Shown here: one piece after another, positions 1 to 39,948 of the stretch | Position numbering within the stretch: position 1 is the stretch's first letter | Layout: each line of letters begins with the position of its first letter | Sequence record: OM908436.1 | From: Escherichia phage TM1 | Direction: 5' to 3' (one strand) | Length of the DNA stretch: 39,948 bases | Notes under the pieces: generated by a model | What the model was told of the DNA's origin: nothing | Databases searched by the model: none | Seen by the model: only the letters and a program-made list of their open reading frames with translations | Translations under genes and position numbers: made by a program

Positions 1-127
1 GCGTCAGCCGGGATGGTCCCGAAGCTATCGTGAATCACTGCGAATGACATCACGCCATATTTGCGGTGCGTGTGGACTACAGTCTTGCGGAGGTGGCTAC
101 CATCTTGTGAGTGGACGAAGTTCGGGC
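1..127. repeat. Exact duplicate of window bases 39822-39948 (127 bp); probable assembly overlap of a circularised contig
   Basis: Base-for-base identity of the two window ends; 127 is a common maximum k-mer length; the duplicate lies inside the RNA polymerase coding frame. Confidence 0.8.
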
Positions 128-2492
128 TAATGCCTGACTCCTGCTTGTGCTTGTCCAGCTCTTTCTTCGTGCCTTTGTTGACTGTAGGCTGAAGGTTGAA
201 TGACCCTAAGAACATCAGGTTCAGACGAGTGGTATCCTTCTTGCGGTATTCCTGCCAGACCGGGAAACCATCAGGTGTTACCCAGTGTACCGGAAGGCAT
301 GGCTTCAGGATTTCACCAGTCTTCTTGTCCTTCACTTCAGCAGCCAGCAGCTTGGCAGCACCTTGAAGCCACTTCATCGCGTCAACCGCAGCAACTACGG
401 TCACACTCACAGCTTCCCAAATCATCTTAGCCATGAATCGAGACGCTTGGCTTGGCTCGGTGAACATAGCGCCAGACCCTGAGTCAATCGCTGGCATCAC
501 GATATCCTCGTAAACTTGGTCTGCGAATCCGTACTCTTTCGACCCGTATGCCAGAGTCATGACTGAACGCTTAGTGACCTTGCGTGACATACCATATGTC
601 AGCCACTGACGGGCCAGCTCTCGTGTCCCCAGCTTGATACGTTCGGTAATCTCACCAGTTTTCTTGTCCTCGTGAGTGACCATCTCGTTGTCAGTACCGT
701 TAATCAGCAGGACTTTAAGCTCCTCCTCAATGCGGTCAGACACGATTCGGTAGATGTCTTGGACCTTACCGGATGGCGTCAGGTTTACTGCATGTCCACC
801 GATGTGGTCACGAAGCATCGCGCTGAAGTGCTGAATCCCAGAGCAGGACCCATCGAACGCTACCGGTAGCGAGCAGGAGTACGACAGGCCGTGGTGCATT
901 ACGCCAGCATACTCGAAGCAGAACGCAAGGAAGCAGAACGGAGAGTCTAACTTGCCCCACCACTCAATGCTATCCATTGGTGCTTTAGCCGCAGTCATGA
1001 TGTTGTCGTGGTTGTCTTCAACCCACTTGATGCGCTCCTCGAAGGTGACTTTATCGACACCCGCACAGTTTGCACCGTGGACCTTCAGCCACTTGAAACC
1101 ATCAGCGCCAATAGGCTTGCCGACTGCCAGAGTAAGGAGACCTTTCTGCATGTCGTTGCCTTGAGGGTTGAACATCGGCACAGCGTAGACTCGACCGCGC
1201 CAGTCCATGTTGTACGGAAACCAGATGGCCTTGAACTGAGAGAACTTGTTCGCTTGGTTAACGATAAAGCTCAGTGACAATCTACGTGACTGCCGGGCCT
1301 TCTCTCGGCGGTAGATACCAGCAGCAGCCTTCTTCCATGCCTTGAGTTCTTCTTCAGTCTCACCCGCATAGTCCTCAGGCTTCAGTGGCTCCATCTGAGG
1401 GATATCATCAATAGGCGTGTTGTTCAACTTCTCGACCATGTTTACCACGTCCAGCACCTTCTTGTTCACTTTCCACGGTGTATTCTGGATGATATTCACA
1501 GCGTCATAGACTTCAGGCATGTACACGTCTTCGTAACGTGCTACCGCAGACTTAGACCCTAAGCGAATCAGTGGCAATGGTCTTCGACCTTTGGCCCAAT
1601 ACCCACCGCCTACGACACCAGTCCACGGCTTTGGTGGAACGACGCAAGGCTGATAGACTGGCGCAATACCCGCGAGGCTGAATCCGCGTTGTGCCATCTT
1701 CTTGACCCAGAAGTCTGACAGGTGGACCATCTCAACGTCAGCCGCCGCATTGCCAGCACCGTAACGCTTAAGCTCGACCAGTTGTGTAGACTGGATGACA
1801 ATCTCAAGCATCTTGATGCCAACGTGTACCGCTTCGGTCGGACTCCAAGTACCCCACGCATCTTCCAGCTGACCTTGCTCAAGCATGGAGGTCTCAACCG
1901 CTTGCATGTAGGCTTTCTTGTAGGATACCCCTGCTCGCTTGTTCAGGTTCTCAGCTATCGCCTTCTTGAAATGCTCCTTCTCCTGATCACGGATGCGACC
2001 GAAGCGGATTTCATCCTCAAGTGTGCGACCTATCGCTGAGGCCATCGGTGTAATCGGGATCCCTTCAGGCTTGACCAGCTTGGAGAGGATGACCTTCAGT
2101 ATGATAACCGCAGCAGACTCACATGAGATGCGCAGAGAGCGGTCCTTGACGGCCTTCTCTTCAGTGCTCAACATGGTGAACGCCACGCTAGGACGAGAGG
2201 TTGACAGCTTCCCGTCTGGCCCTTCATGCCACTCCTTGACGGCTTGCGCAATCTTAGGGACCAGAGTCTGCATCAAAGGCTTGGCGACCTGATTGTCTGC
2301 CAGTTCCCCGCGCTCAGTCTGGCGCTCAAGGTTCTTGATGAAACGTCGCTCGCCTTCAGTGTATGCCTCGTGCTCAAGCTGAAGCTGTTTGACTGCAAGG
2401 TCTTGCCCGTAGTGGTCAGCCAGCAGGTTAAACGGCTCAATGGCGTTCGACACATCAGAGAAGTCGTGTTTTTCAATAGAGATGACGCTCAT
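1..2492 (-). CDS. gp1: T7-type single-subunit DNA-directed RNA polymerase, N-terminal and central part (start codon 2490-2492; continues across the window edge into 39632-39948)
   Basis: Reverse translation from 2492 gives MSVISIEKHDFSDV..., matching the T7 RNAP N-terminus MNTINIAKNDFSDIELAAIPFNTLADHYG; frame is continuous with the C-terminal piece through the 127-bp overlap (about 893 aa in total). Confidence 0.9.
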   Translation of the reverse strand, partial: MSVISIEKHDFSDVSNAIEPFNLLADHYGQDLAVKQLQLEHEAYTEGERRFIKNLERQTERGELADNQVAKPLMQTLVPKIAQAVKEWHEGPDGKLSTSRPSVAFTMLSTEEKAVKDRSLRISCESAAVIILKVILSKLVKPEGIPITPMASAIGRTLEDEIRFGRIRDQEKEHFKKAIAENLNKRAGVSYKKAYMQAVETSMLEQGQLEDAWGTWSPTEAVHVGIKMLEIVIQSTQLVELKRYGAGNAAADVEMVHLSDFWVKKMAQRGFSLAGIAPVYQPCVVPPKPWTGVVGGGYWAKGRRPLPLIRLGSKSAVARYEDVYMPEVYDAVNIIQNTPWKVNKKVLDVVNMVEKLNNTPIDDIPQMEPLKPEDYAGETEEELKAWKKAAAGIYRREKARQSRRLSLSFIVNQANKFSQFKAIWFPYNMDWRGRVYAVPMFNPQGNDMQKGLLTLAVGKPIGADGFKWLKVHGANCAGVDKVTFEERIKWVEDNHDNIMTAAKAPMDSIEWWGKLDSPFCFLAFCFEYAGVMHHGLSYSCSLPVAFDGSCSGIQHFSAMLRDHIGGHAVNLTPSGKVQDIYRIVSDRIEEELKVLLINGTDNEMVTHEDKKTGEITERIKLGTRELARQWLTYGMSRKVTKRSVMTLAYGSKEYGFADQVYEDIVMPAIDSGSGAMFTEPSQASRFMAKMIWEAVSVTVVAAVDAMKWLQGAAKLLAAEVKDKKTGEILKPCLPVHWVTPDGFPVWQEYRKKDTTRLNLMFLGSFNLQPTVNKGTKKELDKHKQESGISPNFVHSQDGSHLRKTVVHTHRKYGVMSFAVIHDSFGTIPAD

Positions 2493-2561
2493 ACTTAAAG
2501 TCCTTGTTATTAGTCTTTCACTTAAAGTCTCTTTGGTCTTTCACTTGGAGTCTTAGACCTT

Positions 2562-2584
2562 GAGTCCTATAGTGATAGTTAAGT
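2562..2584 (-). promoter_or_regulatory. Phage-RNAP promoter-like sequence immediately upstream of the RNAP gene (ACTTAACTATCACTATA/GGACTC)
   Basis: Matches the phage promoter consensus at -13 to +2; initially transcribed region deviates (GGACTC instead of GGGAGA). Confidence 0.5.
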
Positions 2585-2589
2585 CATAA

Positions 2590-2982
2590 TTACTTGCATA
2601 TCAGAGGGGTAGCGTGAAGATGACTGAAGTCACCGTGAGTCGTGTGCTTGATGGTTGACCGTTGGTCTATCGCCTTCCAGCCTGAGACCAGAAGTTTACC
2701 ATCGTCAGTGATTGGTCGTCCCCCATACGCCAGACACATCAGTTCGGACTTATGGCCCTCGGCCTGGAGTCGTGCCTGAAGTACACGGTCTCGCTCCTGC
2801 TGTTGACGCTTAGTGTGTGATGAGTGGCGGTGTACATAAGCGCTCTTTCTCCCGGTCTTCTCCCAATAGTTGCGACCACGCGAATCCTTTCCAACATACT
2901 TCCACTCTACTCCGTTCTTATCAGTGAATTTGCGAAACGCTAGGGTTGAGTCCATTGCGTGTACCAGATTTGACATATTCAT
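2590..2982 (-). CDS. Early hypothetical protein (130 aa)
   Basis: ORF directly upstream of the RNAP gene in the early region; start overlaps the stop of the upstream ORF (ATGA); no recognisable motif. Confidence 0.5.
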   Translation of the reverse strand: MNMSNLVHAMDSTLAFRKFTDKNGVEWKYVGKDSRGRNYWEKTGRKSAYVHRHSSHTKRQQQERDRVLQARLQAEGHKSELMCLAYGGRPITDDGKLLVSGWKAIDQRSTIKHTTHGDFSHLHATPLICK

Positions 2983-3179
2983 TACAGTTTGCTCCCAAGA
3001 GTTGCTATATCCCAGACGTTCGCTAAATTACGCGCGAATCGCCCGTTAGGTTGGCGTACAGTCCAGCGGCCCAGACGTGCATAGTTGAATTTATAGACTT
3101 TACGTGCCTTGTTGATGTCTCTCATCAGCATGTAGGCGATAAGTCCATAGCCTATGGCTATCAATAGTTCGATACTCAT
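2982..3179 (-). CDS. Early small hydrophobic protein (65 aa), probable single transmembrane helix
   Basis: Hydrophobic N-terminus LLIAIGYGLIAYML; coupled to the downstream ORF. Confidence 0.4.
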   Translation of the reverse strand: MSIELLIAIGYGLIAYMLMRDINKARKVYKFNYARLGRWTVRQPNGRFARNLANVWDIATLGSKL

Positions 3180-3284
3180 AGTGATTTCCGTTTAATACAA
3201 TCGTATATCCCATAACCTATCATCCAGATAACTGGCGCTAGGCATACCAAATATCCCACACTCATAGTTAACTCCTATTAATGC

Positions 3285-3340
3285 AAGTGGTAATCTTTGA
3301 GGCCACCTATCAGTCGATGACCTCTCGTTTATCACTTAGC
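3285..3340 (-). promoter_or_regulatory. Conserved early intergenic RNA hairpin element, copy D (candidate RNase III processing site)
   Basis: Shares the AGGCCACC...GATGACCT core and flanks with copy C; the stem closes with G-U pairs only in the minus-strand transcript. Confidence 0.45.
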
Positions 3341-3354
3341 TAGGCCACGCATGG

Positions 3355-3702
3355 TTACACTTCCACCGATACAGTGGTCATCTTGCTTACAGTCAGCCCA
3401 CCAGCAAGCTCAACCGCATAGCGTATCGCCTCCTCTTTGGATTTGAAGTCCTTTCCTGCAAGGTGGTAAATATCGCCTGTTATTACCTTAGAAGGCCTGC
3501 GACTCACCGCAATAGCGTTTTCCATGGCAAGCTCACCACGGCTATACTGAGTAAGCCAGCGCTTCACCGAACTCGTTCCCACCCCGAACTTTTGGGCGGT
3601 TGCAGTCACCCTATCCATAACTCCCTCAGGCAGAGAGGTGTAGTAGTTAACAACGTTGAGTTTAAATGCTACCGAGAATACATTGCGAGTTTTAGCAGTC
3701 AT
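3355..3702 (-). CDS. Early hypothetical protein (115 aa) with a possible helix-turn-helix segment
   Basis: ORF in the early region; the segment ATAQKFGVGTSSVKRWL resembles an HTH; no T7 counterpart recalled. Confidence 0.5.
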   Translation of the reverse strand: MTAKTRNVFSVAFKLNVVNYYTSLPEGVMDRVTATAQKFGVGTSSVKRWLTQYSRGELAMENAIAVSRRPSKVITGDIYHLAGKDFKSKEEAIRYAVELAGGLTVSKMTTVSVEV

Positions 3703-3725
3703 TATTCTTTCCTTCTGTAGGTGTT

Positions 3726-3776
3726 AAGTGGTAATCACTCAGGCCACCATGTAGATGACCTGTAGTTTAACACTCA
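3726..3776 (-). promoter_or_regulatory. Conserved early intergenic RNA hairpin element, copy C (candidate RNase III site)
   Basis: Transcript AGGUCAUC-loop-GGUGGCCU gives an 8-bp stem with two G-U pairs; flanked by the conserved CTGTAGTTTAACACT block. Confidence 0.45.
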
Positions 3777-4059
3777 GTATCCACCTGTCAGCGTTATGGT
3801 CAAGCTATGGTGATTAGCCACGTAGCAAGCCCCGCGCTTCATCATCTCGTAGCAACCATCGTAGAACGCCTGTTCACTGCTATAAGTTATCTGGTACATG
3901 TTTACTTGTCCTCAGCGTGTAAGCTGTCATACATGCGCTTACGACCCTCATAGACCGCTTTCAGGTGGCGCATAGCCTCATAGTGGTTTAACCGCCCGGT
4001 CTTGACCATAATCCGGGCGTTGGTGACATGGTGCTGGCAGAGACCATAAGTTACCATCA

Positions 4060-4404
4060 CTAGCAGTCCTCCTCTTCGTCTGCCTCTTCAGCCTCAAACC
4101 ATACCACATCACGGCTATTAGACACGTCGTTATAAAGTGCCTCATAGATACGAGCTTGCAGTATACGCGTCACATCCTTGGTCTCAGGCATCAGCCCAGA
4201 GTCTTCGAACTCATGGTCAATACCATCAGCAGCCATCACCGTAAAAATCTCGTGGTAATAGTGCGGTACCTGACCATCTACTACCTCATGCAGCGCATCA
4301 TGATAATCATCGCCTTCAGCTATTTCGTCGCACTGAATACGCTCATTGAACAGCTCAACGGTTGCAGCCAGCAGCTCATAGTATGCGTTAGCGTTACGTT
4401 CCAT
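4060..4404 (-). CDS. ocr: Ocr-like anti-restriction DNA-mimic protein (T7 gp0.3 homolog)
   Basis: 114 aa, acidic; [50 protein letters not shown] aligns with T7 Ocr [50 protein letters not shown]; acidic C-terminal tail. Confidence 0.88.
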
Positions 4405-4433
4405 AGTTATATCCTCTCAAAGTTAAGTATGTG

Positions 4434-4485
4434 TTAGTGACTATCATTCAGGCCGCTAGAAGCTAACGACCTGTAGTTAATCACT
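4434..4485 (-). promoter_or_regulatory. Conserved early intergenic RNA hairpin element, copy A (candidate RNase III site)
   Basis: TTAGTGACTATCATTCAGGCC...GACCTGTAGTTAATCACT, same architecture as copy B. Confidence 0.45.
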
Positions 4486-4762
4486 AGTAGGCTACATCTT
4501 TAAGTGCATTCTTAAGCATGGTCTCTATGTGTGAATCCTTCACGTTAGCCATATATCCGCCTATCACTTGCACTTCTGCATTATTGCTGGCAATTATTTC
4601 CTGCGACTTTTTATGGCCCACTCCATGATAACAATCCCACATGAAGCGCTTGAACGTTAGACCATTCTCTTTGTAGCGCTCGGCTTCTTCCGCCACTCCA
4701 CGTAATAATCTTGATTCTAACTCCTTGCGGAAGGCGTCTGCTGTAGCTTTGTTCAGTCTCAT
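4484..4762 (-). CDS. First early gene, hypothetical protein (92 aa)
   Basis: ORF with Shine-Dalgarno TAAGGA 6 nt upstream of the ATG; first ORF downstream of the sigma70-like promoter and leader; no recognisable motif. Confidence 0.5.
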   Translation of the reverse strand: MRLNKATADAFRKELESRLLRGVAEEAERYKENGLTFKRFMWDCYHGVGHKKSQEIIASNNAEVQVIGGYMANVKDSHIETMLKNALKDVAY

Positions 4763-4779
4763 AATGAATCCTTAGGTTG

Positions 4780-4862
4780 TTAGTGACTATCAGTCAGGGC
4801 CTTCAGTCGCTCAAGTCAAGCCCGTCTCGCGGTAGACTCAAAGACCCTGTAGTTAATCACTG
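4780..4862 (-). promoter_or_regulatory. Conserved early leader RNA hairpin element, copy B (candidate RNase III site)
   Basis: Contains the TTAGTGACTATCA and CCTGTAGTTAATCACT flank blocks shared with copy A. Confidence 0.4.
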
Positions 4863-4884
4863 TCGGCGCACATTAAGAGTTTAT

Positions 4885-4962
4885 CCAGATTGTTAAAGAG
4901 CGTTCGCGTTGGCTGTCGTCGCCGTGCTATCCCGTTTCAGTGTTGGGACTCACCGTTGTTTC
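4885..4962 (-). promoter_or_regulatory. Leader segment resembling the T7 R0.3 RNase III site region
   Basis: Transcript GAAACAACGGTGAGTCCCAACACTGAAACGGGA...CGCTCTTTAACAATCTGG closely resembles, from memory, T7 GAAACGACAGTGAGTCACCACACTGAAAGGTGA...CGCTCTTTAACAATCTGG. Confidence 0.5.
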
Positions 4963-4977
4963 GTGTTGATGTGGTGC

Positions 4978-5007
4978 ATACTACTTTAAGTCTGTACATC
5001 TTGTCAA
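4978..5007 (-). promoter_or_regulatory. Host sigma70-type early promoter (T7 A3-like): -35 TTGACA, -10 TAGTAT
   Basis: Transcript-strand ACAAAACGCTTGACAAGATGTACAGACTTAAAGTAGTAT parallels T7 A3 ACAAAACGGTTGACAACATGAAGTAAACACGGTACGAT (from memory). Confidence 0.55.
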
Positions 5008-5284
5008 GCGTTTTGTTTAGCCTGTTAACCTAAACCGTGAGCTATAGCCCCTCAGTGGGCGACCCGTTGCCTCCTCTAGCTCTCCACCTCAGTGGTAGAC
5101 TTGGCGAGCTGGTCAGGCTCTCGTTAGGTTGTAGGACCTTTCCGACCTGCTGAAGTGGGAGCCTCCAGCGACCCTACTGCTTTCTGTCATCTGCCTGTTG
5201 TTCGTATGACTTATCAGGCTGTCTACTTAACCGGGATGACCCGGCGTCTTCACTATCCGGTGTTTGCCGTGTCGTGTTGACGGA

Positions 5285-5320
5285 AGCTATTAGGCCATAG
5301 TCTAGACCTATAGTCAATAT
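5285..5320 (-). promoter_or_regulatory. Possible second host-type early promoter (A1-like; -35 TTGACT, weak -10 CCTAAT)
   Basis: TTGACT followed by a 17-nt spacer and CCTAAT on the transcript strand; weak -10, so tentative. Confidence 0.3.
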
Positions 5321-5429
5321 GTAATTTGAAATAATATTGATTAAGCTATCGTCGGCCCCATAGTGACTAAGAGGATATAGTCTTTGACTAACATGTCTTA
5401 GACCTTAAGTCTATAGCCATTGTGTCTAT

Positions 5430-5780
5430 TAACTGTAGGTTTAGACTGTAGGTAGCGGCAGTACCGATGGTCGATGACTGTAGGTAGTTAGACTGTAGGT
5501 AGTGACTCAAGGTCTGATACAGATGGAGACTCAGAGGCAGACCCATAGTCCCTACCTATCGTCTCCACCTCCAGCCATAGCCGATACCTATCGTTGACCT
5601 GAAGTCTTGACCATCGGTCCAGCCTTATGATAGACTGGGGTAGGGCCTTTGGTCTGGACTTAAAGAGGGCCTATGGGGAGACTTGAGGTTCTTGAACTGT
5701 GAGATGTGGTCTCAAACTTTTGGTCCAAAACTCATCGAAGACTGTAGGTGGCAGCTACTGTAGGTCAAGGACCGTAGGTC
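5430..5780. repeat. Candidate genome termini / concatemer junction: two arrays of ACTGTAGGT-type short repeats flanking a roughly 240-bp segment that may be the collapsed direct terminal repeat
   Basis: ACTGTAGGT at about 5432, 5445, 5477, 5492 and again at 5741, 5757, 5771 (one ACCGTAGGT variant); no ORFs; sits between gene 19 and the early promoters, like the CCTAAAG repeat arrays beside the T7 terminal repeat. Confidence 0.45.
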
Positions 5781-5939
5781 AGGCGACACTAGGATAGACC
5801 AATAAGTAGGATGACCCTAAGTGAGCTTCTATTAAGGTGTTACCTAAAGTCCTTGACTACAGTAGCTAAGGTCAGTAGAGTAGCGTAAGCTATGAACTGA
5901 CCTTAGGTCTTCCGCTCATGAATCGTTACCATGATTGCG

Positions 5940-6098
5940 TTAATTACACTGAGACACCAGAGAACATACGAGAGTCTCGACCCACCCGACCCACTGACTT
6001 CCAGCAGTAACGCCAGCAGTAAGTAGAACAGCAGCAAGAAACCTGTATGTAGCTCGATTGGTCGCCAGAGCTTTAAGTACAGCTTTGGTCTTTGCCAT
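5940..6098 (-). CDS. Small hydrophobic protein (52 aa) at the gene 19.5 position
   Basis: ATG preceded by AGGAGG at about 8 nt; MAKTKAVLKALATNRATYRFLAAVLLTAGV...; below the ORF-track size cutoff, hand-translated. Confidence 0.4.
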   Translation of the reverse strand: MAKTKAVLKALATNRATYRFLAAVLLTAGVTAGSQWVGWVETLVCSLVSQCN

Positions 6099-6278
6099 AT
6101 GCTACATACCTCCTGTATCTATGGTCGGTGACTATCTGTATTGGAGGGATTATGATTAATATCACCCTCCTTCCATCGGTGCAAGCCTTAGGTAAGAACT
6201 CGGAGTCTGCCTCCTAAGGTCTTGCATAAAGTCTGCATATGTATATTCACTACAGTAATACTATAAGTAACCGGGGGT

Positions 6279-6301
6279 CTTCCCTATAGTGATAGTTAAG
6301 T
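6279..6301 (-). promoter_or_regulatory. Phage-RNAP promoter downstream of terminase (phiOR-like)
   Basis: ACTTAACTATCACTATA/GGGAAG. Confidence 0.65.
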
Positions 6302-6395
6302 CCAAACTCCTTGTAAAACAGTAGGTTAGACTGGTAGTAACTATAGGTTACTAACTGCTTATTAATTCAGTTTTCGCCTATAGTTATTCATTCAG

Positions 6396-8159
6396 TTAGT
6401 GGAACGTAACGTATGACCCTAGTCCTAGCTCGTCGTCCGTATCGTGAGTTACCCTGACCCCATTGTCCCAGAACTCGGTGTGGATGGACTCGAAGCCTTT
6501 CCGTGGGTTCTCCATCTGTTCCTCCAGCCACTCCTCAGTGACTTCACGTTCGCCTTTGTTGGCATCCTTAGCCATCGACTCAACGAAGAACTGTACACCG
6601 ATAGCCAGCGCATCAAGTCGGTCATCGTGTGCCAATGCTCCACGTTCACGAGAGATACGGGTCATCTGGTAGAAGAGAGAGTAGATAGGGTTACGAACAC
6701 CATCCTTATCAGAGGCTGACTGGTAGTCTTGGACGATAGCAGAAGCGTTAACGATAAGTCGGTGAGACCCCATGATAGGCTCCAGAACGTCACAGATGCG
6801 GAGTTCTTTCTGACCCTTACTCTTCACTTCAGTTACAGCAGCAGGATGGATACGGGCAGCTACAGGCTTGAATAGCTCAAGGTACATACCATCGCCGAAG
6901 TTACCCTCAATGACGTATTCGTTGACCTTCCACTTACGACCAATCTTAGCCAAGGCTTCCAGCGTAGAGTCTTCATAGCCACCGCGCATACCACCAACTT
7001 CCATAGCGAAGATGTAGCCGTTGAGCTGGTACAGTACCGCATAACCAGTTTCATCCTTACCACGACCACTAGGGTCAATGACCAGAATCTTCTGGGTGTA
7101 CGAACTGAAGGCAGAACCTACAGTCTGATACGTGTGGTACGAGTCACCCATGAGTCCAACGTTAGGAACGTCCTCACGCTTGTTCTTAGGGTTCGGCAAC
7201 CATTGGTAGACCATTGGGCTAGACTCTGGGTCCAAGTCTGCTACGATAAGGTCACGGAGCTTCAGAGGGTACTTCTCTGCATCACTCAGGTTCGGGTTAA
7301 GCATGAACTGTAGAGCGAAGCCAGCTTTACCATAGGACAGTTCACGTTCCTTCAGGTCCGTATCATCGAATCGTACTTCATCGGTAGGACGCCAGTAGAA
7401 GGACTCAGGGTCCTCTTCCAGCTCTGCCTGAAGCATAGGAGCCAGACGGTCGCCGTAAGACTGCCAGTCCTTCTTATCACGTGGATAACGAGCAGGCCAG
7501 ATAGTAGTGGTGTATCCACGGCCTTCAAGCTCACGATACAAGGTCATCTCGTTCTGAGGAGTACCCAGATAGATGATTGTACCTCCCGGCTTCAGGATAG
7601 CGTCGAACTCTTTCACAAGCTCTGACAGACGGTCTCGTGCAGCTTGAGTCGCTGAGTTGTTCGGAACCTCCACGTCATCTGCAATCAGGATGTCAGCACG
7701 ACTACCAGTCAACTGACCAGTGATACCAACGGACTTAACCGAAGGTGAGTGGTCTGGCTTGGCTGGTCCAACGTCGAAGCTGATAACCGCATCTCGCTGC
7801 CCCTGCTTAGGTTTGAGTTCCTGAAGCTGAGGCATGAGGTCGATGATTCTCTTGATGAATATGGAGTTAGCATCGGCTCGTTCCTTTGAGGCCGACACAA
7901 TCATGAACTTCAAGTCTGGGTTGTTCCATAGTTTCCAGACCACGAATGCACACGTAATGAAGGACTTCCCGATACCACGGAACGCCTGTAGGATGAAACG
8001 CCTGTTGTCCCCAGCCGATAGTTTCTTCGCCATGTCAATCTGACAGCGAGTCGGGACCGGGAGTGATAGAGCTTTCCACAGGACGAACAGGAAGAACACG
8101 AAGTCTGCCTTCATACGGGCAGTCATTAGCGCCTGACGCGCCACTAAGTCTTTACTCAA
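6396..8159 (-). CDS. gp19: Terminase large subunit (T7 gp19-like)
   Basis: 587 aa, same size and position as T7 gp19; last structural-module gene before the terminal region; start overlaps the spanin stop. Confidence 0.9.
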
Positions 8160-8605: not shown

Positions 8606-8667
8606 AGTTGCCCTCCCGGTTTATCAGATTTCACGTAGAGTCGCCTCCACTAGTTAGTGTTAACCAT

Positions 8668-8706: not shown

Positions 8707-8970
8707 TTATTGAACGCCATACCCTGTGTCATTATCCTCAGTCGCTGAAAGCACCTTATCGTACTCTGCGTTCAGGGCCTCCATATCAGCCAGCGTCTTC
8801 TCGTCCACAGACACCTTGCTTAACACAAAGTTGTGGCGAGCAAGCAGCTTCTCAATGGCGTTGTAGAGCTGAGGTGAACGCTTAGAGTCATCCCGCAGGT
8901 CTTGCAGCATGAGTCGAGCACGTTCAGTATCTAGCATTAAGAGGAACTTCTCTAAGTCCATCTGCGTCAT
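8707..8970 (-). CDS. gp18: Terminase small subunit (T7 gp18-like)
   Basis: 87 aa, position between holin and Rz-like genes; size matches T7 gp18. Confidence 0.75.
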   Translation of the reverse strand: MTQMDLEKFLLMLDTERARLMLQDLRDDSKRSPQLYNAIEKLLARHNFVLSKVSVDEKTLADMEALNAEYDKVLSATEDNDTGYGVQ

Positions 8971-11250: not shown

Positions 11251-11273
11251 GTTTCCTATAGTGATAGTTTAGT
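11251..11273 (-). promoter_or_regulatory. Phage-RNAP promoter upstream of the tail fiber gene (phi17-like)
   Basis: ACTAAACTATCACTATA/GGAAAC; overlaps the gp16 stop codon. Confidence 0.7.
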
Positions 11274-18964: not shown

Positions 18965-18987
18965 AGTCCCTATAGTGATAGTTAAGG
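18965..18987 (-). promoter_or_regulatory. Phage-RNAP promoter (phi13-like), lying in the loop of a 12-bp perfect inverted repeat
   Basis: CCTTAACTATCACTATA/GGGACT; flanked by AAGGGCCTATAG (18955-18966) and CTATAGGCCCTT (18993-19004). Confidence 0.7.
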
Positions 18988-23525: not shown

Positions 23526-23548
23526 TCTCCCTATAGTGATAGTTTAGT
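23526..23548 (-). promoter_or_regulatory. Phage-RNAP promoter upstream of the capsid gene (phi10-like); best consensus match
   Basis: ACTAAACTATCACTATA/GGGAGACC, about 115-nt leader to the gene 10 ATG. Confidence 0.85.
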
Positions 23549-24522: not shown

Positions 24523-24545
24523 TGTTCCTATAGTGATAGTTTAGG
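24523..24545 (-). promoter_or_regulatory. Phage-RNAP promoter (phi9-like) overlapping the portal gene stop
   Basis: CCTAAACTATCACTATA/GGAACA. Confidence 0.7.
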
Positions 24546-27342: not shown

Positions 27343-27365
27343 AGTCCCTATAGTGATAGTTTAGT
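27343..27365 (-). promoter_or_regulatory. Phage-RNAP promoter (phi6.5-like)
   Basis: ACTAAACTATCACTATA/GGGACT. Confidence 0.75.
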
Positions 27366-31947: not shown

Positions 31948-31971
31948 GGTTAATCCTCCGTTTAGTCTAAT

Positions 31972-32008: not shown

Positions 32009-32010
32009 AC

Positions 32011-32174
32011 CTAGAAGTCTGTACGCAAGAAGTGATACATGAACTTCCGGTTAGCTTTCTTCCATGCCTCGGAGTTGAACCGCTGGTCTCCCAGAATGTT
32101 CGACAGGCAGGTTGCTTCGTCGCTCCACCATTTGTACATGAACCGATGGTAGCGAGCTTTAAGTTTCTTTAACA

Positions 32175-32175
<1 letters not shown>
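32011..32175 (-). CDS. Possible small protein (about 54 aa, GTG start with SD GGAGGA) between primase-helicase and DNA polymerase
   Basis: GTG preceded by GGAGGA at 6 nt; VLKKLKARYHRFMYKWWSDEATCLSNILGDQRF...; hand-translated, tentative. Confidence 0.3.
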
Positions 32176-33921
<1,746 letters not shown>

Positions 33922-33968
33922 TCACTCCTTAATCACAAATGCGAACAAAGGGACAGGACTCATAGTCC

Positions 33969-33991
33969 CATCCCTAAGGTGATAGTTTAGG
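33969..33991 (-). promoter_or_regulatory. Phage-RNAP promoter-like sequence upstream of gene 4 (diverged at -4/-3)
   Basis: CCTAAACTATCACCTTA/GGGATG. Confidence 0.5.
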
Positions 33992-34202
33992 CTTTGAAGA
34001 ACTGAGCCAACTGGTCAGCTTTGGTATCAGCTTGACGCGCCTTCATACCAGCTTCCAGTGATGCGATGGTCAGCTTGTCAGCCAGCGCAGCAGCATCAGC
34101 CGCACCGTCAGCAGTCTTCTTTTCTACCTTTCGTTCCAGTACCGCAGCACGACGATAACCACGCACCACCAGACGACCAAGAAATTCGATAAGTTTAATC
34201 AT
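33987..34202 (-). CDS. Small conserved T7-like protein (71 aa)
   Basis: MIKLIEFLGRLVVRGY...QLAQFFKA resembles, from uncertain memory, a roughly 70-aa T7 protein MFKLIKKLGQLLVRMY...QLSKFFE. Confidence 0.45.
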   Translation of the reverse strand: MIKLIEFLGRLVVRGYRRAAVLERKVEKKTADGAADAAALADKLTIASLEAGMKARQADTKADQLAQFFKA

Positions 34203-34225
34203 TGAGTTGTTCTCCTTAGAGTTTA

Positions 34226-34684
34226 TTAACCGTGGTCGGAAGTGAACAGTTCATTGGTAGACAGCCAGCGTTGCAAGTCGAAACTTGGACACGCCTTAGG
34301 TGCTACGTCATGGTGTGCTTTGATTTCTGCCTGAGGATACAAGGCTTTCAGGTCAGCTAGCTTGTTGCGCAGGGAGTTCATCTGGGCTGGAGTGAAGTTA
34401 GCTTCAAACTGACCCTTAGCGTTGATTCCGCCTACAAGGCAGACGCCTACGGACCGGGAGTTCCAGTCCTTAACGTGTGACCCTACGACATTTACCGGGC
34501 GACCCTCTTGCACAGTGCCATCTCGCCTGATGATAAAGTGATAGCCTACGTCCAGCCACCCCTGCTGCTTGTGCCACATGCGGATAGTGTCTACCCCGAT
34601 GTCCTGAGACGGTGGGGTAGCCGAACAGTGAACGAAGATAGCGTCAGTCCGGGACCGTGGGTTGAATTGCACCTTACTCACCAT
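34226..34684 (-). CDS. gp3.5: Lysozyme / N-acetylmuramoyl-L-alanine amidase (T7 gp3.5-like)
   Basis: 152 aa; TDAIFVHCSATPPSQ, WLDVGYHFIIRRDGTV, SVGVCLVGG, FEANFTPAQM and HHDVAPKACPSFDL match T7 lysozyme. Confidence 0.93.
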   Translation of the reverse strand: MVSKVQFNPRSRTDAIFVHCSATPPSQDIGVDTIRMWHKQQGWLDVGYHFIIRRDGTVQEGRPVNVVGSHVKDWNSRSVGVCLVGGINAKGQFEANFTPAQMNSLRNKLADLKALYPQAEIKAHHDVAPKACPSFDLQRWLSTNELFTSDHG

Positions 34685-34901
34685 CGTACACCACCAGCTC
34701 TACAGCTACGAGGTTAAGATGACGTTGGAATCGGTTAGCATCCGTGGTGTGCATCTGGAGTAACTTATGGTTGAAGACGTGAGAGTTGCTAATCTTCACG
34801 TACACTTCGTCAGGCTTACCATGGACGATGAACGCATAGCCTACCGGGATTTTATCAATGGTCAGACGCTTACGAACGACCTTAACTTCTTGAGTCATCA
34901 C
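34674..34901 (-). CDS. Hypothetical protein (75 aa) inserted between endonuclease I and lysozyme
   Basis: ORF whose start overlaps the gp3 stop and whose end overlaps the gp3.5 start; no T7 counterpart recalled. Confidence 0.4.
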   Translation of the reverse strand: MMTQEVKVVRKRLTIDKIPVGYAFIVHGKPDEVYVKISNSHVFNHKLLQMHTTDANRFQRHLNLVAVELVVYDGE

Positions 34902-35350
34902 TTAACTCCTTTCTTCTTGGGGATGAGGATGCCTGAAGGCAGACGTACAGTCGCCTCTCGCAGCCACTCAACCGGGATGAACTTATCGGCAAACTTAAAG
35001 CCGTTCTTTTCGCACCATGCTCCATACGTGGTCTGAGACCCCTTGTATAACTTGGAGCGGGAACTTGAGAACACGAACCGAATGTCTAACTCAGGGTGCT
35101 GTTCTCGTACCAGAAGGTGCTTCTTACGGTCATCACTGTCGAAGATACCTTTGGTCTCCACGATGATACCGTTAGGAAGGATAAAGTCTGGTGTGTACTT
35201 GTGGTCGGAAGCCGGAATCACATAGTTGATATAATGGCTTTCGTACTCCGCTTTGACGCCGTTCTGTTCCAGCCACTGCTGGTTCTTGGCTTCAAGTCCA
35301 GAGCGGTAGGCACCCACAGAGTGCCCCCGTTTTGCAGACCATTGGGCCAT
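34898..35350 (-). CDS. gp3: Endonuclease I, Holliday-junction resolvase (T7 gp3-like)
   Basis: 150 aa versus 149 in T7; YTPDFILPNGIIVETKG fits the endonuclease I catalytic region. Confidence 0.85.
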   Translation of the reverse strand: MAQWSAKRGHSVGAYRSGLEAKNQQWLEQNGVKAEYESHYINYVIPASDHKYTPDFILPNGIIVETKGIFDSDDRKKHLLVREQHPELDIRFVFSSSRSKLYKGSQTTYGAWCEKNGFKFADKFIPVEWLREATVRLPSGILIPKKKGVK

Positions 35351-36048
35351 TAGAAGTTGTAATCGCCACCAGAGTTGGAGTCGTCACCACCTTCGGAACC
35401 ATCGTCACCGAAGTCATCGTCACCGAAGTCACCATCGGTTGACGCTTTGTAGCCAGTACCGAGGTCTTCATCATCACCCCAGCCACCATCGCCACCAGCA
35501 CCATCACCTTTCCACTCCTTCAGTTCTACCAGAAGGCAGGACTCAAGCTGGAGCTTAACGCTTGCACCAGTCGCAGCGTTCCACTTGAACGGCAGGACTT
35601 TAAACTTGACCTTCAGCTTTGAGCCAGCTCCAATATTCGGGACGTCACGGATTAACTTAGCATCGGTGTCGTAGAACCGTAATACGATAGGCTCTGACTT
35701 ACCATCCTTCAGGTAAGACGCGAAGCATTTAAACTTCAGGGTAACAGTACCGTCACCATTCTCAATCCACGGCATGTCGCCTTCTCGTGGTTCAATAGGC
35801 TTCTTGCCACGCTGAACCTGAGGTGGGTTCTTCTCGTGGTCTGCGAGTGCTTTCGCATACGCATCGTCGTGAATCTTCTGTAAGACATCAATCATCTTAC
35901 GGACCTTCGGGTTGCTCAGGTCGAATGTCAGGTTGACTTTGTGTTCACCACGCTCGTTGAACTTGGTGTCTGCTTTGTTAAGCCATGCGTAAGGCTCAAC
36001 GATACCAGCTACCGGAGTGGTGAAAGTCTTCAGTTGCTCTTTAGCCAT
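35350..36048 (-). CDS. gp2.5: Single-stranded DNA-binding protein (T7 gp2.5-like)
   Basis: 232 aa, same as T7 gp2.5; strongly acidic C-terminal tail ending in F. Confidence 0.88.
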   Translation of the reverse strand: MAKEQLKTFTTPVAGIVEPYAWLNKADTKFNERGEHKVNLTFDLSNPKVRKMIDVLQKIHDDAYAKALADHEKNPPQVQRGKKPIEPREGDMPWIENGDGTVTLKFKCFASYLKDGKSEPIVLRFYDTDAKLIRDVPNIGAGSKLKVKFKVLPFKWNAATGASVKLQLESCLLVELKEWKGDGAGGDGGWGDDEDLGTGYKASTDGDFGDDDFGDDGSEGGDDSNSGGDYNF

Positions 36049-36088
36049 TGGTGTAAATCTCCTAATTTAAAAGTTACGAACTGGACGT

Positions 36089-36111
36089 CTGTCCTACAGT
36101 GATAGTTTAGG
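36089..36111 (-). promoter_or_regulatory. Phage-RNAP promoter (phi2.5-like), overlapping the gene 2 stop
   Basis: CCTAAACTATCACTGTA/GGACAG. Confidence 0.6.
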
Positions 36112-36265
36112 TCTCAGGACGAATCCGTCCGACCACAAACCCAGCGTCCTCATACTCTTGGGACTTCAGTGTAGCCTCTTCAAGAGACTTTGCGTACACC
36201 GGAATCTCGAAGGACTGAACGCGACCCTCAAGCTCCACGATGTACTTCTTCTCAACCTCAGTCAT
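36107..36265 (-). CDS. gp2: Host RNA polymerase inhibitor (T7 gp2-like), 52 aa
   Basis: [14 protein letters not shown]...[11 protein letters not shown] aligns with T7 gp2 SFEVPIYAETLDEA...PAGFEVTRVRP; hand-translated. Confidence 0.65.
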
Positions 36266-36448
36266 AAACCGCGCTCCTTCCATTGGTTGTATAACGTGAT
36301 GTAGTCCTGGTTGAGAGTCTTCTCATACATCTCCCGGCACCACTCACTTGGTTTTACCATATTCCACCTCTATCGCCCAATACATTAAACGGAATAATGC
36401 GCCTACTCCAGCACAGATTAATCCGAAGTACAGAATATCATTAAGCAT
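36262..36448 (-). CDS. Two tiny tandem ORFs (34 and 32 aa) at the gene 1.8 position
   Basis: 36344-36448 [34 protein letters not shown] (hydrophobic) and 36262-36360 [32 protein letters not shown]; overlapping stop/start arrangement; tentative. Confidence 0.25.
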
Positions 36449-36878
36449 GACATTTACCTTTATGTAGGTCGAACAGCTCCTGATAGAAGGCTGCTTTGTT
36501 TAGGTCCTTCTCCATAGTAGCCAGCTCTGACTTCTTGCCAGCCCGGAGTCGATACTTCAGGACGTTACCCATGCAGAACCCACGGAACTCGCTGACAGTC
36601 ATTGACCGAGCGATAATCTCAATGGATTCCACACCGTCAAAGACCTGATAGTGAGATGGCTTACGGACGCTATCTTCCTGACCTATGGTTGTTGGCTCGG
36701 ACTGCGCCTGCTTGGTAATACTTAAGGAACTAATGGAGTGAGTGAGTGGTTCAGATAAACGGGGCCACTTAACAACAGCCACATGCTCATTCTTAACCAC
36801 TATCACCTTGCCACAGGAGCGTCCAGTGTGGGCTTCAACTGGTCCAACATAGTTAACTGTATCCCCCACCTTAACCAT
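36441..36878 (-). CDS. Protein at the gene 1.7 position (145 aa)
   Basis: Position only; T7 gp1.7 is a nucleotide kinase but I cannot confirm similarity. Confidence 0.45.
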   Translation of the reverse strand: MVKVGDTVNYVGPVEAHTGRSCGKVIVVKNEHVAVVKWPRLSEPLTHSISSLSITKQAQSEPTTIGQEDSVRKPSHYQVFDGVESIEIIARSMTVSEFRGFCMGNVLKYRLRAGKKSELATMEKDLNKAAFYQELFDLHKGKCHA

Positions 36879-37131
36879 TGATCACCTCCTTCACGAACTC
36901 AACGAACAGACGAACGCGAGGCCACTTAGTGTAGACCACTGGTACGTTGGTCTCACGCTTCTGGCGAGCCTCTTCAGCTTTACCACGAGTAATCAGAGCG
37001 AAGACTGTAGGTGACAGCTTAACGGCCTTCCCGAAGTATCCCAGCTTCTCGTTTCGCTTAATGCAAGCGAACGGGTTGTTTGACAGGTGGAAGGTATCAG
37101 TATAACGATTGAACATTAAGTTCTTAGACAT
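36871..37131 (-). CDS. T7 gp1.6-like protein
   Basis: 86 aa; DTFHLSNNPFACIKRNEKLGYFGKAVKLSPTVFAL matches my uncertain recollection of T7 gp1.6. Confidence 0.5.
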   Translation of the reverse strand: MSKNLMFNRYTDTFHLSNNPFACIKRNEKLGYFGKAVKLSPTVFALITRGKAEEARQKRETNVPVVYTKWPRVRLFVEFVKEVING

Positions 37132-37164
37132 AAGGTTTCTCCTCTTAAAGTCTGGGACCGGGTG

Positions 37165-37187
37165 TGGTCCTACAGTGATAGTTTAGT
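37165..37187 (-). promoter_or_regulatory. Phage-RNAP promoter (phi1.5/1.6-like)
   Basis: ACTAAACTATCACTGTA/GGACCA. Confidence 0.6.
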
Positions 37188-37207
37188 CCATCGCGCTGGG
37201 TCCAGAC

Positions 37208-37240
37208 GCAAAGAAACCCAGCAGTCCTAAGACCACTGGG
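37208..37240 (-). terminator. Intrinsic-terminator-like hairpin just after the ligase gene (T7 TE-like position)
   Basis: Transcript CCCAGUGGUC-UUAG-GACUGCUGGG followed by UUUCUUU; 10-bp stem with two G-U pairs; T7 has its early terminator after gene 1.3. Confidence 0.5.
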
Positions 37241-37251
37241 TTGACATTTAG

Positions 37252-38310
37252 TTAACTCTTAACGGTTGGATTGTCTTCCGTCCCGCGCCAGCACTTGAAG
37301 CTAGGGTGACGAAGGGAACCATCAGGGAAGCGCTCCATGAATAGGACCTCACACTGCCATCCTTCATAGGCGTGGTTGTCACCGTTTAGCTCCTGAGTCT
37401 TAACAGCTAGTGTAAACTCGTCCTTCTGTTCTTCAGTCAGACCACAGGCGTTAACCACCATGCCATCCTCAAGTAGCACCTCGAAGCCGATGACCTTACC
37501 TTCGTTCGCCTTACCAGGAGTCCCCCACACGAGGCCGCACACGGTCCCGTCGATGGTCTCCTCAGGCTTCATCTTCCACATGCCTGACTTCTTGCCACGC
37601 TTGTACTTACCCAGCGGGTCCTTGACTACCAGACCCTCGTGTCCTTCCAGACGCTTCTGTTCGTACAGGGAGTTGAGCGACTCAAGGTCATAGACCGTGT
37701 GTGACTCAGACAGAACCCAGTCGATTTCAGGGAAGTATTTCTGGAGGAGAGGGACGATAGCTTCGGCCTTCAGGCGTGTGACGCTATGGATAGGACCTTC
37801 GGCTTTCGGGTCATTGATGATGTTAAGGTCCACGATACCATAGACGACTACCTTGATGTTCCGTGTTGCCAGCCAGAATGGGACTTTAGTTCCTCTGCCG
37901 GGATAGCACTCAGCAAAATCCTCGTTGCTTGGCTTCAGCCACTTCGTTCTTATGAGACCTGAAGACGTATTGAAGTCCACTCCTTTTACCATGACCTCAC
38001 CATCAATCATCAGGCCCGTACCTTCGTAGCCAGCCTGTTTAAGGAACCATCGCCAGTCACTAGCCCTTTGCTGATCTTCAACGATGTTGTCGATGTTGGT
38101 CAGGACTGATAGCCACTCAAGTGCTGGAAGAGGTTTAGACTCACGGCTCAACCATTGAGTCTCGCCTGTTGGGAAGACTGGGAGGTTCAACCGGACACCA
38201 TCGTACTTCACTTCAGCTTCCAGCGACCCAGCTGCCTCCAAAGCCTTCTTAACTCCAGACTCAGAGTAGTCTACAGCGCGGTGCGGGTTAGTTTTAATAG
38301 TCGTAGTCAT
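37252..38310 (-). CDS. gp1.3: ATP-dependent DNA ligase (T7 gp1.3-like)
   Basis: 352 aa versus 359 in T7; N-terminal IKTNP and adenylation motif KYDG. Confidence 0.88.
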   Translation of the reverse strand: MTTTIKTNPHRAVDYSESGVKKALEAAGSLEAEVKYDGVRLNLPVFPTGETQWLSRESKPLPALEWLSVLTNIDNIVEDQQRASDWRWFLKQAGYEGTGLMIDGEVMVKGVDFNTSSGLIRTKWLKPSNEDFAECYPGRGTKVPFWLATRNIKVVVYGIVDLNIINDPKAEGPIHSVTRLKAEAIVPLLQKYFPEIDWVLSESHTVYDLESLNSLYEQKRLEGHEGLVVKDPLGKYKRGKKSGMWKMKPEETIDGTVCGLVWGTPGKANEGKVIGFEVLLEDGMVVNACGLTEEQKDEFTLAVKTQELNGDNHAYEGWQCEVLFMERFPDGSLRHPSFKCWRGTEDNPTVKS

Positions 38311-38572
38311 TACATTTTCTCCATGTGTCGAGTTGGTTAGCGAGACCGTTAAGGAAGCCTGTTGCAGTGTTATACAGTACGTCTTCAGAGTAGTGTCCGA
38401 AGGTCTTAAGCGCGAAGATGTTACCCGCTCTGTCCTCGACTTGAAGTCTCATGCACTCCATCCGAAGATGCGCGTCATACCAGTCCTGCTGTATCACGCA
38501 GAAGTCTAACTGATATAGTCTGTTACACGCTGCTTTGAAAGCGTTTAGGTTGCCACTATAAAGTCGGCCCAT
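38294..38572 (-). CDS. gp1.2: T7 gp1.2-like protein (inhibitor of host dGTPase)
   Basis: MGRLYSGNLNAFKAACNRLYQLDFCVIQQDWYDAHLRMECMRLQVEDRAGN is near-identical to T7 gp1.2 MGRLYSGNLAAFKAATNKLFQLDLAVIYDDWYDAYTRKDCIRLRIEDRSGN. Confidence 0.8.
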   Translation of the reverse strand: MGRLYSGNLNAFKAACNRLYQLDFCVIQQDWYDAHLRMECMRLQVEDRAGNIFALKTFGHYSEDVLYNTATGFLNGLANQLDTWRKCNDYDY

Positions 38573-38576
38573 AGCG

Positions 38577-38756
38577 TTATGCTCCTACGAAGTACTTCTC
38601 TTGGTTTACCAGCGAGTCTTTGCCTTCAGCGTTGCGGAAAGCGCCCTTAACACCACCGCCACGCCTAGTCTTGTTCAGCTTGCGACCCTTCGGAATGTAA
38701 CCTTCAGTCTTCTGACGTTCACGGATGCGCTCGAAGTTGATAGTGTTCTGATACAT
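38577..38756 (-). CDS. gp1.1: T7 gp1.1-like small basic protein (59 aa)
   Basis: GYIPKGRKLNKTRRGGG resembles T7 gp1.1 EATKGRKLNKTKRDRSH; hand-translated, below the ORF-track cutoff. Confidence 0.5.
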   Translation of the reverse strand: MYQNTINFERIRERQKTEGYIPKGRKLNKTRRGGGVKGAFRNAEGKDSLVNQEKYFVGA

Positions 38757-38796
38757 GTGGTTAAATCTCCAGTAGTTTACGTTATGTTAGGGTTAA

Positions 38797-38837
38797 TCAT
38801 GAAGGCCACGACTTTTAGTCATGACCTTGAGTCTAAT
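38797..38837 (-). promoter_or_regulatory. Conserved RNA hairpin at +5 to +40 of the phi1.1-like transcript (candidate RNase III site, R1.1-like)
   Basis: CATGAAGGCCACG-N10-ATGACCTTGAGTCTA; 11-bp stem with two G-U pairs on the transcript strand. Confidence 0.55.
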
Positions 38838-38856
38838 CCTATAGTGATAGTTTAGA
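38834..38856 (-). promoter_or_regulatory. Phage-RNAP promoter (phi1.1-like)
   Basis: TCTAAACTATCACTATA/GGATTA; overlaps the stop of the 157-aa ORF. Confidence 0.65.
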
Positions 38857-39325
38857 TGACGATGCGAGGCCTTACCTGCATGACTGCCTGAATCGCTCGC
38901 TCACGTTCTGCCTCCTCGCCGTAGACTTGCATCAGCTCGTAGTCATACTGGATGCGACCGTCGATGTCTCCGAGTCGGTACTCGAAGTCCTTAGAAGACC
39001 CGTCTGTGTGATACTGGTGGATGGTAATCGTCCGGTCGTCACGCTTAGTCACCTCGAAGTAGTGAACCACCTTTCCACACTTTACAAGGCCTATCTTGAA
39101 CTCAGTTGGCTGATACTTACCATCGAACAGTGCCTTGAACTTGATGCCGACCATACGCTTGATGGTTACAGCCGCTGGTGGCGCTAGGCGCTTACGCTCT
39201 GACTGGTTAAGCTTATCTCGAAGTCTTTGGTGCTCCCTGTTTGCCATCTCAAGGTTGGTGTCCTGCTTCTTAACTAACTTTTCCAGTTCTGCGATACGTG
39301 CTTTAAGTTTTGACTTACCGAACAT
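38852..39325 (-). CDS. Hypothetical protein (157 aa) with N-terminal coiled-coil-like region, between RNAP and gp1.1
   Basis: Heptad-like, charged N-terminus KLKARIAELEKLVKKQDTNLEMANREHQRLRDKL; T7 has no gene of this size here. Confidence 0.5.
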   Translation of the reverse strand: MFGKSKLKARIAELEKLVKKQDTNLEMANREHQRLRDKLNQSERKRLAPPAAVTIKRMVGIKFKALFDGKYQPTEFKIGLVKCGKVVHYFEVTKRDDRTITIHQYHTDGSSKDFEYRLGDIDGRIQYDYELMQVYGEEAERERAIQAVMQVRPRIVI

Positions 39326-39403
39326 AGGGTTAACCTCTTCTGCGTTGGACTAAAGTGAATACTGCTAGTGCTCCCAGCCACAAGGCCAGTAACTGTAGGT
39401 GTG

Positions 39404-39619
39404 TCATTTGGTCTGCTCCAGCTTGGACACTACGTCTTTCAGGTATTTCTCGTGGCTGGATTCCACAAGATAGACGAGGGTCTTGAATGGGACGTTAAGC
39501 TGCTTTGACATCTCGGTAGGAATGACCGTGGTCTTCACCAGACCCTTGCCGTTGTGTTCTGTTACGGTCACGATTTGAGTCCCACCCTTTACGCCAGCCT
39601 GCTTGTGTGCAAATTTCAT
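39404..39619 (-). CDS. Hypothetical protein (71 aa) immediately downstream of the RNAP gene
   Basis: ORF starting 13 nt after the RNAP stop; no recognised motif. Confidence 0.45.
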   Translation of the reverse strand: MKFAHKQAGVKGGTQIVTVTEHNGKGLVKTTVIPTEMSKQLNVPFKTLVYLVESSHEKYLKDVVSKLEQTK

Positions 39620-39631
39620 AACTCTCTCCTG

Positions 39632-39948
39632 TTAAGCGAATGCAAAGTCTGAAGACAAGATGTCTTCGATATTCAGTTTACCTTTCTTCGGAAGCTCAGG
39701 CAATTTGTCGCGCTGGCTCTCGTGGAGCTGGTATTCAAACTGCTCGTAGAAGTCAAGCAGCACATCGTTATCGCGGTAGGTCTCTACCATCGTCTCACGG
39801 ACGCCACGGAACAGATACTCAGCGTCAGCCGGGATGGTCCCGAAGCTATCGTGAATCACTGCGAATGACATCACGCCATATTTGCGGTGCGTGTGGACTA
39901 CAGTCTTGCGGAGGTGGCTACCATCTTGTGAGTGGACGAAGTTCGGGC
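39632..39948 (-). CDS. gp1: T7-type RNA polymerase, C-terminal part (stop codon 39632-39634); same gene as 1-2492
   Basis: HDSFGTIPADAEYLFRGVRETMVETY...LHESQRDKLPELPKKGKLNIEDILSSDFAFA matches the T7 RNAP C-terminus HDSFGTIPADAANLFKAVRETMVDTY...LRDILESDFAFA. Confidence 0.92.
   Translation of the reverse strand, partial: PNFVHSQDGSHLRKTVVHTHRKYGVMSFAVIHDSFGTIPADAEYLFRGVRETMVETYRDNDVLLDFYEQFEYQLHESQRDKLPELPKKGKLNIEDILSSDFAFA
39822..39948. repeat. Exact duplicate of window bases 1-127 (assembly overlap)
   Basis: See feature at 1-127. Confidence 0.8.

Follow-up and report, generated by a model that had tools for sequence, protein, structure and literature searches.

The 39,948-nucleotide sequence of Escherichia phage TM1 (OM908436.1), analysed over its whole length and called the window below, carries all of its long open reading frames (ORFs) on the minus strand and is a complete T7-type genome in reverse complement. 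Two elements of it concern us here. An exact duplication of 127 bp occupies the two ends of the window and falls inside gene 1, which encodes the RNA polymerase (RNAP), while a predicted terminal repeat of 180 bp, present in a single copy, lies between the large terminase gene and the first early gene. Nucleotide searches with the terminase-early gap and with the late, middle and early regions all returned Kayfunavirus, the K1F-like Studiervirinae, the best records for each region being about 91-95% identical over about 87-97% of the query. We are highly confident that TM1 is a complete K1F-like (Kayfunavirus) T7-type genome that was output as a closed cycle and cut arbitrarily inside gene 1, and that the duplication at the ends is the k-mer overlap left by an assembler on linearising that cycle.

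Duplication at the ends of the window

A comparison of the window ends found positions 1-127 and 39822-39948 identical at 127 of 127 bases, with no extension beyond them, and no longer prefix of the window is also its suffix. Exact identity of 127 nt at two fixed positions is expected by chance with a probability of about 4^-127. The duplication is the sole exact repeat of at least 25 bp in the window and the source of all 103 of its repeated 25-mers. When one copy is subtracted, a unique circle of 39,821 bp is left.

Taken by itself, the window holds 830 codons of gene 1 without a stop, and the gene is therefore divided by the contig ends. On the circularised sequence, a single minus-strand ORF of 893 amino acids (aa) runs from 2492 to 1 and then from 39821 to 39632, with the C-terminus ...SSDFAFA followed by a stop; the overlap codes for RNAP residues ~789-831, among which the HDSFGT motif occupies 821-826. 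We searched sequence collections with a junction query of 1,200 nt, comprising 600 nt from each side of the collapsed overlap. It gave one uninterrupted match to Citrobacter phage SH3 (record positions 4900-6099, 95.4% identity), whose record begins at its experimentally determined end, and it also matched across the junction in many other records. Three IMG/VR contigs (L026, L028 and L025) continue across the junction, and two of them, L026 and L028, align exactly 127 query bases to both ends of the window. Removal of one overlap copy thus yields a sequence that is continuous in independent genomes (SH3 and the three contigs) and leaves the RNAP ORF intact. Because the relatives run uninterrupted over this point, the circular join in gene 1 represents true continuity, and the contig ends are arbitrary.

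These results bear out several claims of the original prediction, which had been made from the sequence alone: that the two ends are identical, that they fall within the RNAP coding sequence with the frame preserved, and that a repeat inside gene 1 is not biological.

Prediction of the physical ends

From the terminase stop (6396) to the first early ATG (4762), the window has 1.6 kb of mostly non-coding sequence, in which the short gp19.5 is the only gene. Within this gap, the minus strand at 5704 begins TCTCACAGTTCAAGAACCTCAAGTCTCCCCATAGG. The same starting string opens the deposited genome of K1F (NC_007456), which has an exact repeat of 178 bp as both its prefix and its suffix. Aligned to window positions 5704-5526, the K1F repeat is identical at 165 of 178 positions, and a K1F concatemer junction rebuilt from its right end and the left end after the repeat is collinear with the window. 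A search with 5704-5525 matched 254 records, and in many of these position 1 (or 1-3) of the query coincides with position 1 of the record. Records that start at the query start include K1F, EcoDS1 (with an annotated terminal repeat), NS1, ECG4, Ro45lw and IMM-002; SH3 and SH5, each with an annotated short direct terminal repeat, also begin there, as does T3 over the first ~70 nt.

The other boundary reads ...CTGAGTCTCC/ATCTGTATCAGA on the window, at 5525/5524. The repeats of relatives, whose lengths were measured or annotated, span 178 bp in K1F and EcoDS1 (annotated as 1-178), 179 bp in EPr2 and UViG 2974574648, 181 bp in CR44b, 184 bp in SH3 and 190 bp in Ro45lw. In all seven of these genomes the repeat starts with TCTCACAGTTCAAGA and ends with ...GAGTCTC(T) right before ATCTGTAT, as in the window, and ATCTGT directly follows the repeat in T7 (161-166), T3 (232-237), K1F, EcoDS1, SH3 and Ro45lw. 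The ends of SH3, SH4 and SH5 were determined by direct sequencing off virion DNA until the signal dropped (PMC4925675), so the homology anchors are experimental and do not come from annotation alone; the same study gives repeat lengths of 183, 190 and 190 bp for SH3, SH4 and SH5, and it also has values for K1F (179 bp, cited) and T7 (160 bp, listed). EFA-1 and UViG 2757321099 were also tried as anchors and were dropped, as neither has an exact prefix equal to its suffix.

By homology with these genomes, we predict physical ends at 5704 and 5525, direct terminal repeats of 180 bp, and a virion DNA of 40,001 bp (39,821 + 180), given that one repeat copy is absent from the window. The predicted molecule would follow the minus strand from 5704 to 1 and then from 39821 to 5525, starting with TCTCACAGTT and ending with GAGTCTCC; the TM1 terminase would share both of its cutting positions with its relatives. 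The ends so placed lie in the interval originally proposed (near 5500-5750). That proposal had also described about 39,821 bp of unique sequence plus one collapsed copy of a terminal repeat, and the repeat is indeed single-copy, with none of its 14-mers found elsewhere in the window. It had further called the genome circularly permuted, which suits the contig as a rotated representation but not the virion DNA, as T7-type ends are fixed and not permuted. A strain-specific 47-mer of the repeat had no match in IMG/VR.

Origin of the circular contig and alternative explanations

The cycle can be explained from the structure expected of the virion DNA. With the same ~180-bp repeat at both ends, the two copies would collapse to one node linking the right and left ends, and the graph cycle would close for this reason; a concatemer junction, which has just one copy of the repeat, would produce an identical join. 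A de Bruijn-graph assembler would then cut the cycle, here within gene 1, and leave the final k-mer at both ends. Phages with direct terminal repeats (DTRs) form concatemers with one repeat copy per genome length, the repeat being duplicated at packaging; in read data the repeat is covered about two-fold, and the assembly comes out artificially circular (PMC5000459). Short-read and hybrid assemblies of Studiervirinae often lack the DTRs (PMC10438801). The original prediction had noted that 127 is a typical de Bruijn k-mer size, and phage contigs from SPAdes have in fact been described with artificial terminal overlaps of 127 bp, which published pipelines trim as artefacts (PMC5923482). TM1 resembles these contigs in its exact 127-bp duplication at both ends of a phage assembly; the parallel is drawn from the length and exactness of the overlap only, and the assembler of the TM1 contig is something we infer. 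The overlap is a known assembler artefact, there is nothing new in the end structure, and the finding is an ordinary one that opens no biological question.

Several points weigh against this reading or limit its precision. The end of the repeat maps to a different window position depending on the relative chosen, at 5525 from the curated repeats of EcoDS1 and EPr2, 5526 from K1F and 5521 from SH3, which amounts to an uncertainty of about -4 to +1 nt in the right boundary. As relatives disagree on this boundary by a few bases, 180 bp is an approximate figure for the repeat length. Conservation is lowest in the inner third of the repeat. EFA-1, the closest relative in the late region, lacks a clean end repeat and is unusable as an anchor. 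Finally, both the k-mer origin of the overlap and the physical ends are inferred and not directly observed.

Could the 127-bp duplication instead be a genuine DTR, with virion ends at 1 and 39948? Genomes with DTRs do appear in records with exact terminal repeats, and completeness tools score any exact end repeat as a DTR. With such a repeat, however, the essential gene 1 would be broken into 830 stop-less codons and a short remainder, and the catalytic HDSFGT motif would fall within the repeat itself; the relatives are all continuous at this point, the real repeat of the genus, with its conserved boundaries, lies 5.7 kb away, and a length of 127 bp is that of a documented assembler artefact. 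For practical purposes we consider this explanation excluded. Headful packaging, in which the DNA would be truly circularly permuted without fixed ends and the circular contig would be its proper representation, is scarcely more credible. The contig does close to a circle, and the N-terminal domain of the terminase has a weak match (24 bits) to PF03237, a generic T4-type terminase ATPase family, but its nuclease domain is assigned to PF22530 (6e-38), a T7-specific family. Relatives that are ~91-95% identical over matched regions have fixed ends, some of them by experiment, and the repeat is conserved at the corresponding site together with the motifs at its boundaries. We rejected headful permutation on these grounds.

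Two further alternatives leave the artefactual origin of the overlap intact. One is that the ends are shifted, either because the repeat is not 180 bp long (for example 184-190 bp, as in SH3, SH5 and Ro45lw) or because a boundary has moved. Repeat lengths in the genus do range from 178 to 190 bp, and the SH3 end falls 4 nt beyond the others, at 5521; the differences in length, however, come mostly from indels within the repeat, and both conserved boundary strings are present in the window, so that we regard a shift as unlikely. Somewhat less unlikely, though still improbable, is that what closed the circle was not a merging of the repeats from the two virion ends but reads of replicative concatemers, in which a single repeat stands between right and left flank. 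In DTR phages, successive unit genomes of a concatemer are separated by exactly one copy of the repeat (PMC5000459), which is what the window contains. This route, however, leads to a contig and predicted ends no different from those under collapse, and is a variant of the explanation we prefer, a closed cycle of a fixed-end genome cut inside gene 1, and not a competitor to it.

In practice, before the contig is annotated, compared or deposited, one copy of the 127-bp overlap should be removed, the circle re-opened at 5704 in reverse complement and a second copy of the 180-bp repeat added, for a total of 40,001 bp. If uncorrected, the contig has gene 1 split, 127 bp counted twice and one repeat copy missing, and its overlap can be mistaken for a biological terminal repeat. 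The physical ends of Studiervirinae genomes can be placed from sequence alone by means of the conserved boundary strings TCTCACAGT... and .../ATCTGT.

Features around the predicted repeat

The features of the window are collected in Table 1. Those for phiOR, gp19.5, the repeat, the host promoters and the gp0.3 start were transferred by alignment from the curated EcoDS1 genome (EU734172).

Table 1. Features of the TM1 window, in order of position (slashes mark a boundary or alternative motifs)
Feature	Position	Strand	Evidence
Overlap copy 1, interpreted as assembly artefact	1..127	.	Identity to 39822-39948; within gene 1, RNAP residues ~789-831
Gene 1, T7-type single-subunit RNAP, N-terminal 830 codons	1..2492	-	893-aa ORF on circle; RNA polymerase annotated here in relatives
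Matches to phage RNAP promoter consensus TAACTATCACTATAGGGA	2564-2581, 6281-6298, 11253-11270, 18967-18984, 23528-23545, 24525-24542, 27345-27362, 33971-33988, 38836-38853	-	
First early gene, 92 aa, gene 0.3 position	4484..4762	-	ORF list; ATG aligned with EcoDS1 gp0.3 ATG
Strong host-RNAP early promoter, TTGACA-18-TAGTAT	4964..5007	-	Sigma-70 scan 10/12; aligned with EcoDS1 host promoter
First host-RNAP early promoter (A1 equivalent)	5281..5317	-	34/37 bases identical to annotated EcoDS1 host promoter
Short-repeat array (4 x ACCTACAGT), just downstream of repeat, left-end side	5432..5500	-	Motif census
Conserved ATCTGTATCAGA directly after repeat	5513..5524	-	Site annotated as concatemeric junction in relatives
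Predicted terminal repeat, 180 bp, single collapsed copy	5525..5704	-	Start TCTCACAGTTCAAGA at 5704, end ...CTGAGTCTCC at 5525, then ATCTGTAT
Short-repeat array (ACCTACAGT/ACCTACGGT), just upstream of repeat, right-end side	5741..5779	-	Motif census, sequence
gp19.5 homologue, last gene before right end	5940..6098	-	EcoDS1 annotation transfer
Phage RNAP promoter phiOR	6279..6301	-	23/23 identical to annotated EcoDS1 phiOR
Large terminase gp19, T7 type; predicted to cut the ends	6396..8159	-	Pfam PF22530 Terminase-T7_RNaseH-like, 6e-38
Small terminase gp18	8707..8970	-	Pfam PF11123 DNA_Packaging_2, 5e-12
Tail spike, 666 aa	9204-11204	-	T7 tail-fibre N-terminal adaptor and Tail_spike_N domain
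Gene 1, C-terminal part and stop (...SSDFAFA, stop)	39632..39821	-	ORF on circularised sequence
Overlap copy 2, redundant	39822..39948	.	Exact duplicate of 1-127

The EcoDS1 features keep their order on the window, and phiOR, gp19.5, the host promoters and the short-repeat arrays surround the repeat as they do in EcoDS1 and T7. The region is a textbook T7-type concatemer junction, consisting of a right flank, a single repeat copy and a left flank. On the minus strand there are 10 copies of ACCTACAGT, six of which flank the repeat, two on its upstream side and four on its downstream side. With at most 3 mismatches allowed, the phage RNAP promoter consensus is matched at nine places, phiOR among them; all are on the minus (coding) strand, where chance alone would give 0.03. 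A generic sigma-70 scan carried little information, with 6 sites where 2.8 were expected; it missed the A1-equivalent promoter, which was found only through the EcoDS1 alignment. No intrinsic terminators were found in 4400-6400. A diverged candidate for phiOL, TTAGTCACTATGGGGCC, was noticed by eye around 5372-5350.

The region of the first early gene (4453-4762, minus strand) is unmatched in SH3, phiHAO1-1 and Mt1B1_P3, whose matches start ~270-310 nt downstream, and the records of these three phages have an Ocr protein annotated near the position of the first early gene. Matches to Peacock and Vec13 start at the first base. Among relatives, this anti-restriction slot appears to be variable.

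Comparison with related phages

The assignment to Kayfunavirus and to the T7 type is based on a T7-type set and order of genes on one strand with a single-subunit RNAP, nucleotide similarity throughout the genome, a homologue of the terminal repeat that keeps the start and end strings and lies between gene 19.5 and the early promoters, and a large terminase of T7 type. Other Pfam matches were to nozzle, capsid, portal, family A DNA polymerase, T7 primase/helicase and ATP-dependent ligase.

EcoDS1 shares with TM1 the terminal repeat, the concatemeric junction (177-184 in EcoDS1), phiOR, gp19.5, the host promoters and the gp0.3 start, all in the same order. Its end region is ~87% identical over aligned columns (1659/1909), and its middle host promoter is left unaligned because the early leader is rearranged. 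K1F has the same first 43 nt of the repeat, ends it with GAGTCTC before TATCTGTAT and has the same layout of the flanks. Unlike the TM1 window, with its one internal copy, K1F was deposited with both repeat copies at the true ends. The two phages also differ in the short-repeat arrays after the repeat, where K1F has an extra ~42 nt, and in the tail spike, K1F being known for an endosialidase.

The more distant T7 and T3 retain the same arrangement at both boundaries. Their left ends read TCTCACAGT (T7) and TCTCATAGTTCAAGAACC (T3), and the repeat ends at ...CTGTGTCCCT/ATCTGTTACAGT (160/161) in T7 and at ...ATGTGTCCCT/ATCTGTTAGCCC (231/232) in T3. As in TM1, the repeat has short-repeat arrays around it and lies between phiOL (a candidate in TM1) and phiOR, with the A-type host promoters following. 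In contrast, the repeat is 160 bp long in T7 and 231 bp in T3 as against ~180 bp in TM1, its interior cannot be aligned, and the short-repeat unit is CCTAAAG where TM1 has ACCTACAGT.

The closest relative changes along the genome. For the late genes EFA-1 (MT350292) is best, with 97% coverage and 94.8% identity over 25 kb, but it is not the best match in the other two regions: the middle genes are closest to Hafnia phage yong1 and phage IMEP24 (~92%) and the early genes to Citrobacter phage SH3 (93.4%). The IMG/VR contig L026 (IMGVR_UViG_3300045988_000155) is a different Kayfunavirus, ~92% identical and sharing no 200-mer with TM1; that it, too, measures 39,948 bp is coincidental. No record in the phage collection is at least 95% identical overall, and TM1 therefore probably belongs to an undescribed Kayfunavirus species.

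Full-length matches to the tail spike were found only in EFA-1 (98.6%) and EFA-2 (81%); in other Kayfunaviruses, similarity is confined to the first ~200-220 residues. Residues ~170-660, the receptor-binding part, are ~40% identical to spikes of vB_EcoM_UP17 and TSP7_1, phages of ~150 kb. This pattern suggests that a receptor-binding module was exchanged between distant phage groups. On balance we favour the view that TM1 represents an undescribed Kayfunavirus species with a mosaic genome (SH3-like early, yong1/IMEP24-like middle and EFA-1-like late) and, as the matches suggest, an exchanged spike module.

Observations on public records

Some Kayfunavirus genomes very like those of coliphages are filed under other labels: 'Enterococcus phage EFA-1' (MT350292.1, UNVERIFIED_ORG), 'Acinetobacter phage vB_Aba_01KA' (PV615262.1) and 'Providencia phage EPr2' (OM256482.1). 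The Enterococcus and Acinetobacter host labels look doubtful. The EPr2 record (L001/L002 in our searches), of ~41.26 kb, has its 179-bp repeat annotated four times (1-179, 501-679, 40583-40761 and 41083-41261), and we used the sequence of this repeat but not its layout. A similar pattern of repeats in several places occurs in 216Ecol046PP (PP328844.1, L006). The ends in both records are probably duplicated or mis-assembled.

Two related metagenome contigs in IMG/VR terminate within tandem short repeats at or just past the terminal repeat, one in tandem CACAACCATAAGT units (L018, IMGVR_UViG_3300045988_000061) and the other in a ~29-nt tandem duplication (L021, IMGVR_UViG_3300045988_000088). Unlike the artefact in the TM1 window, these ends are assembly breaks in the repeat-rich end region.

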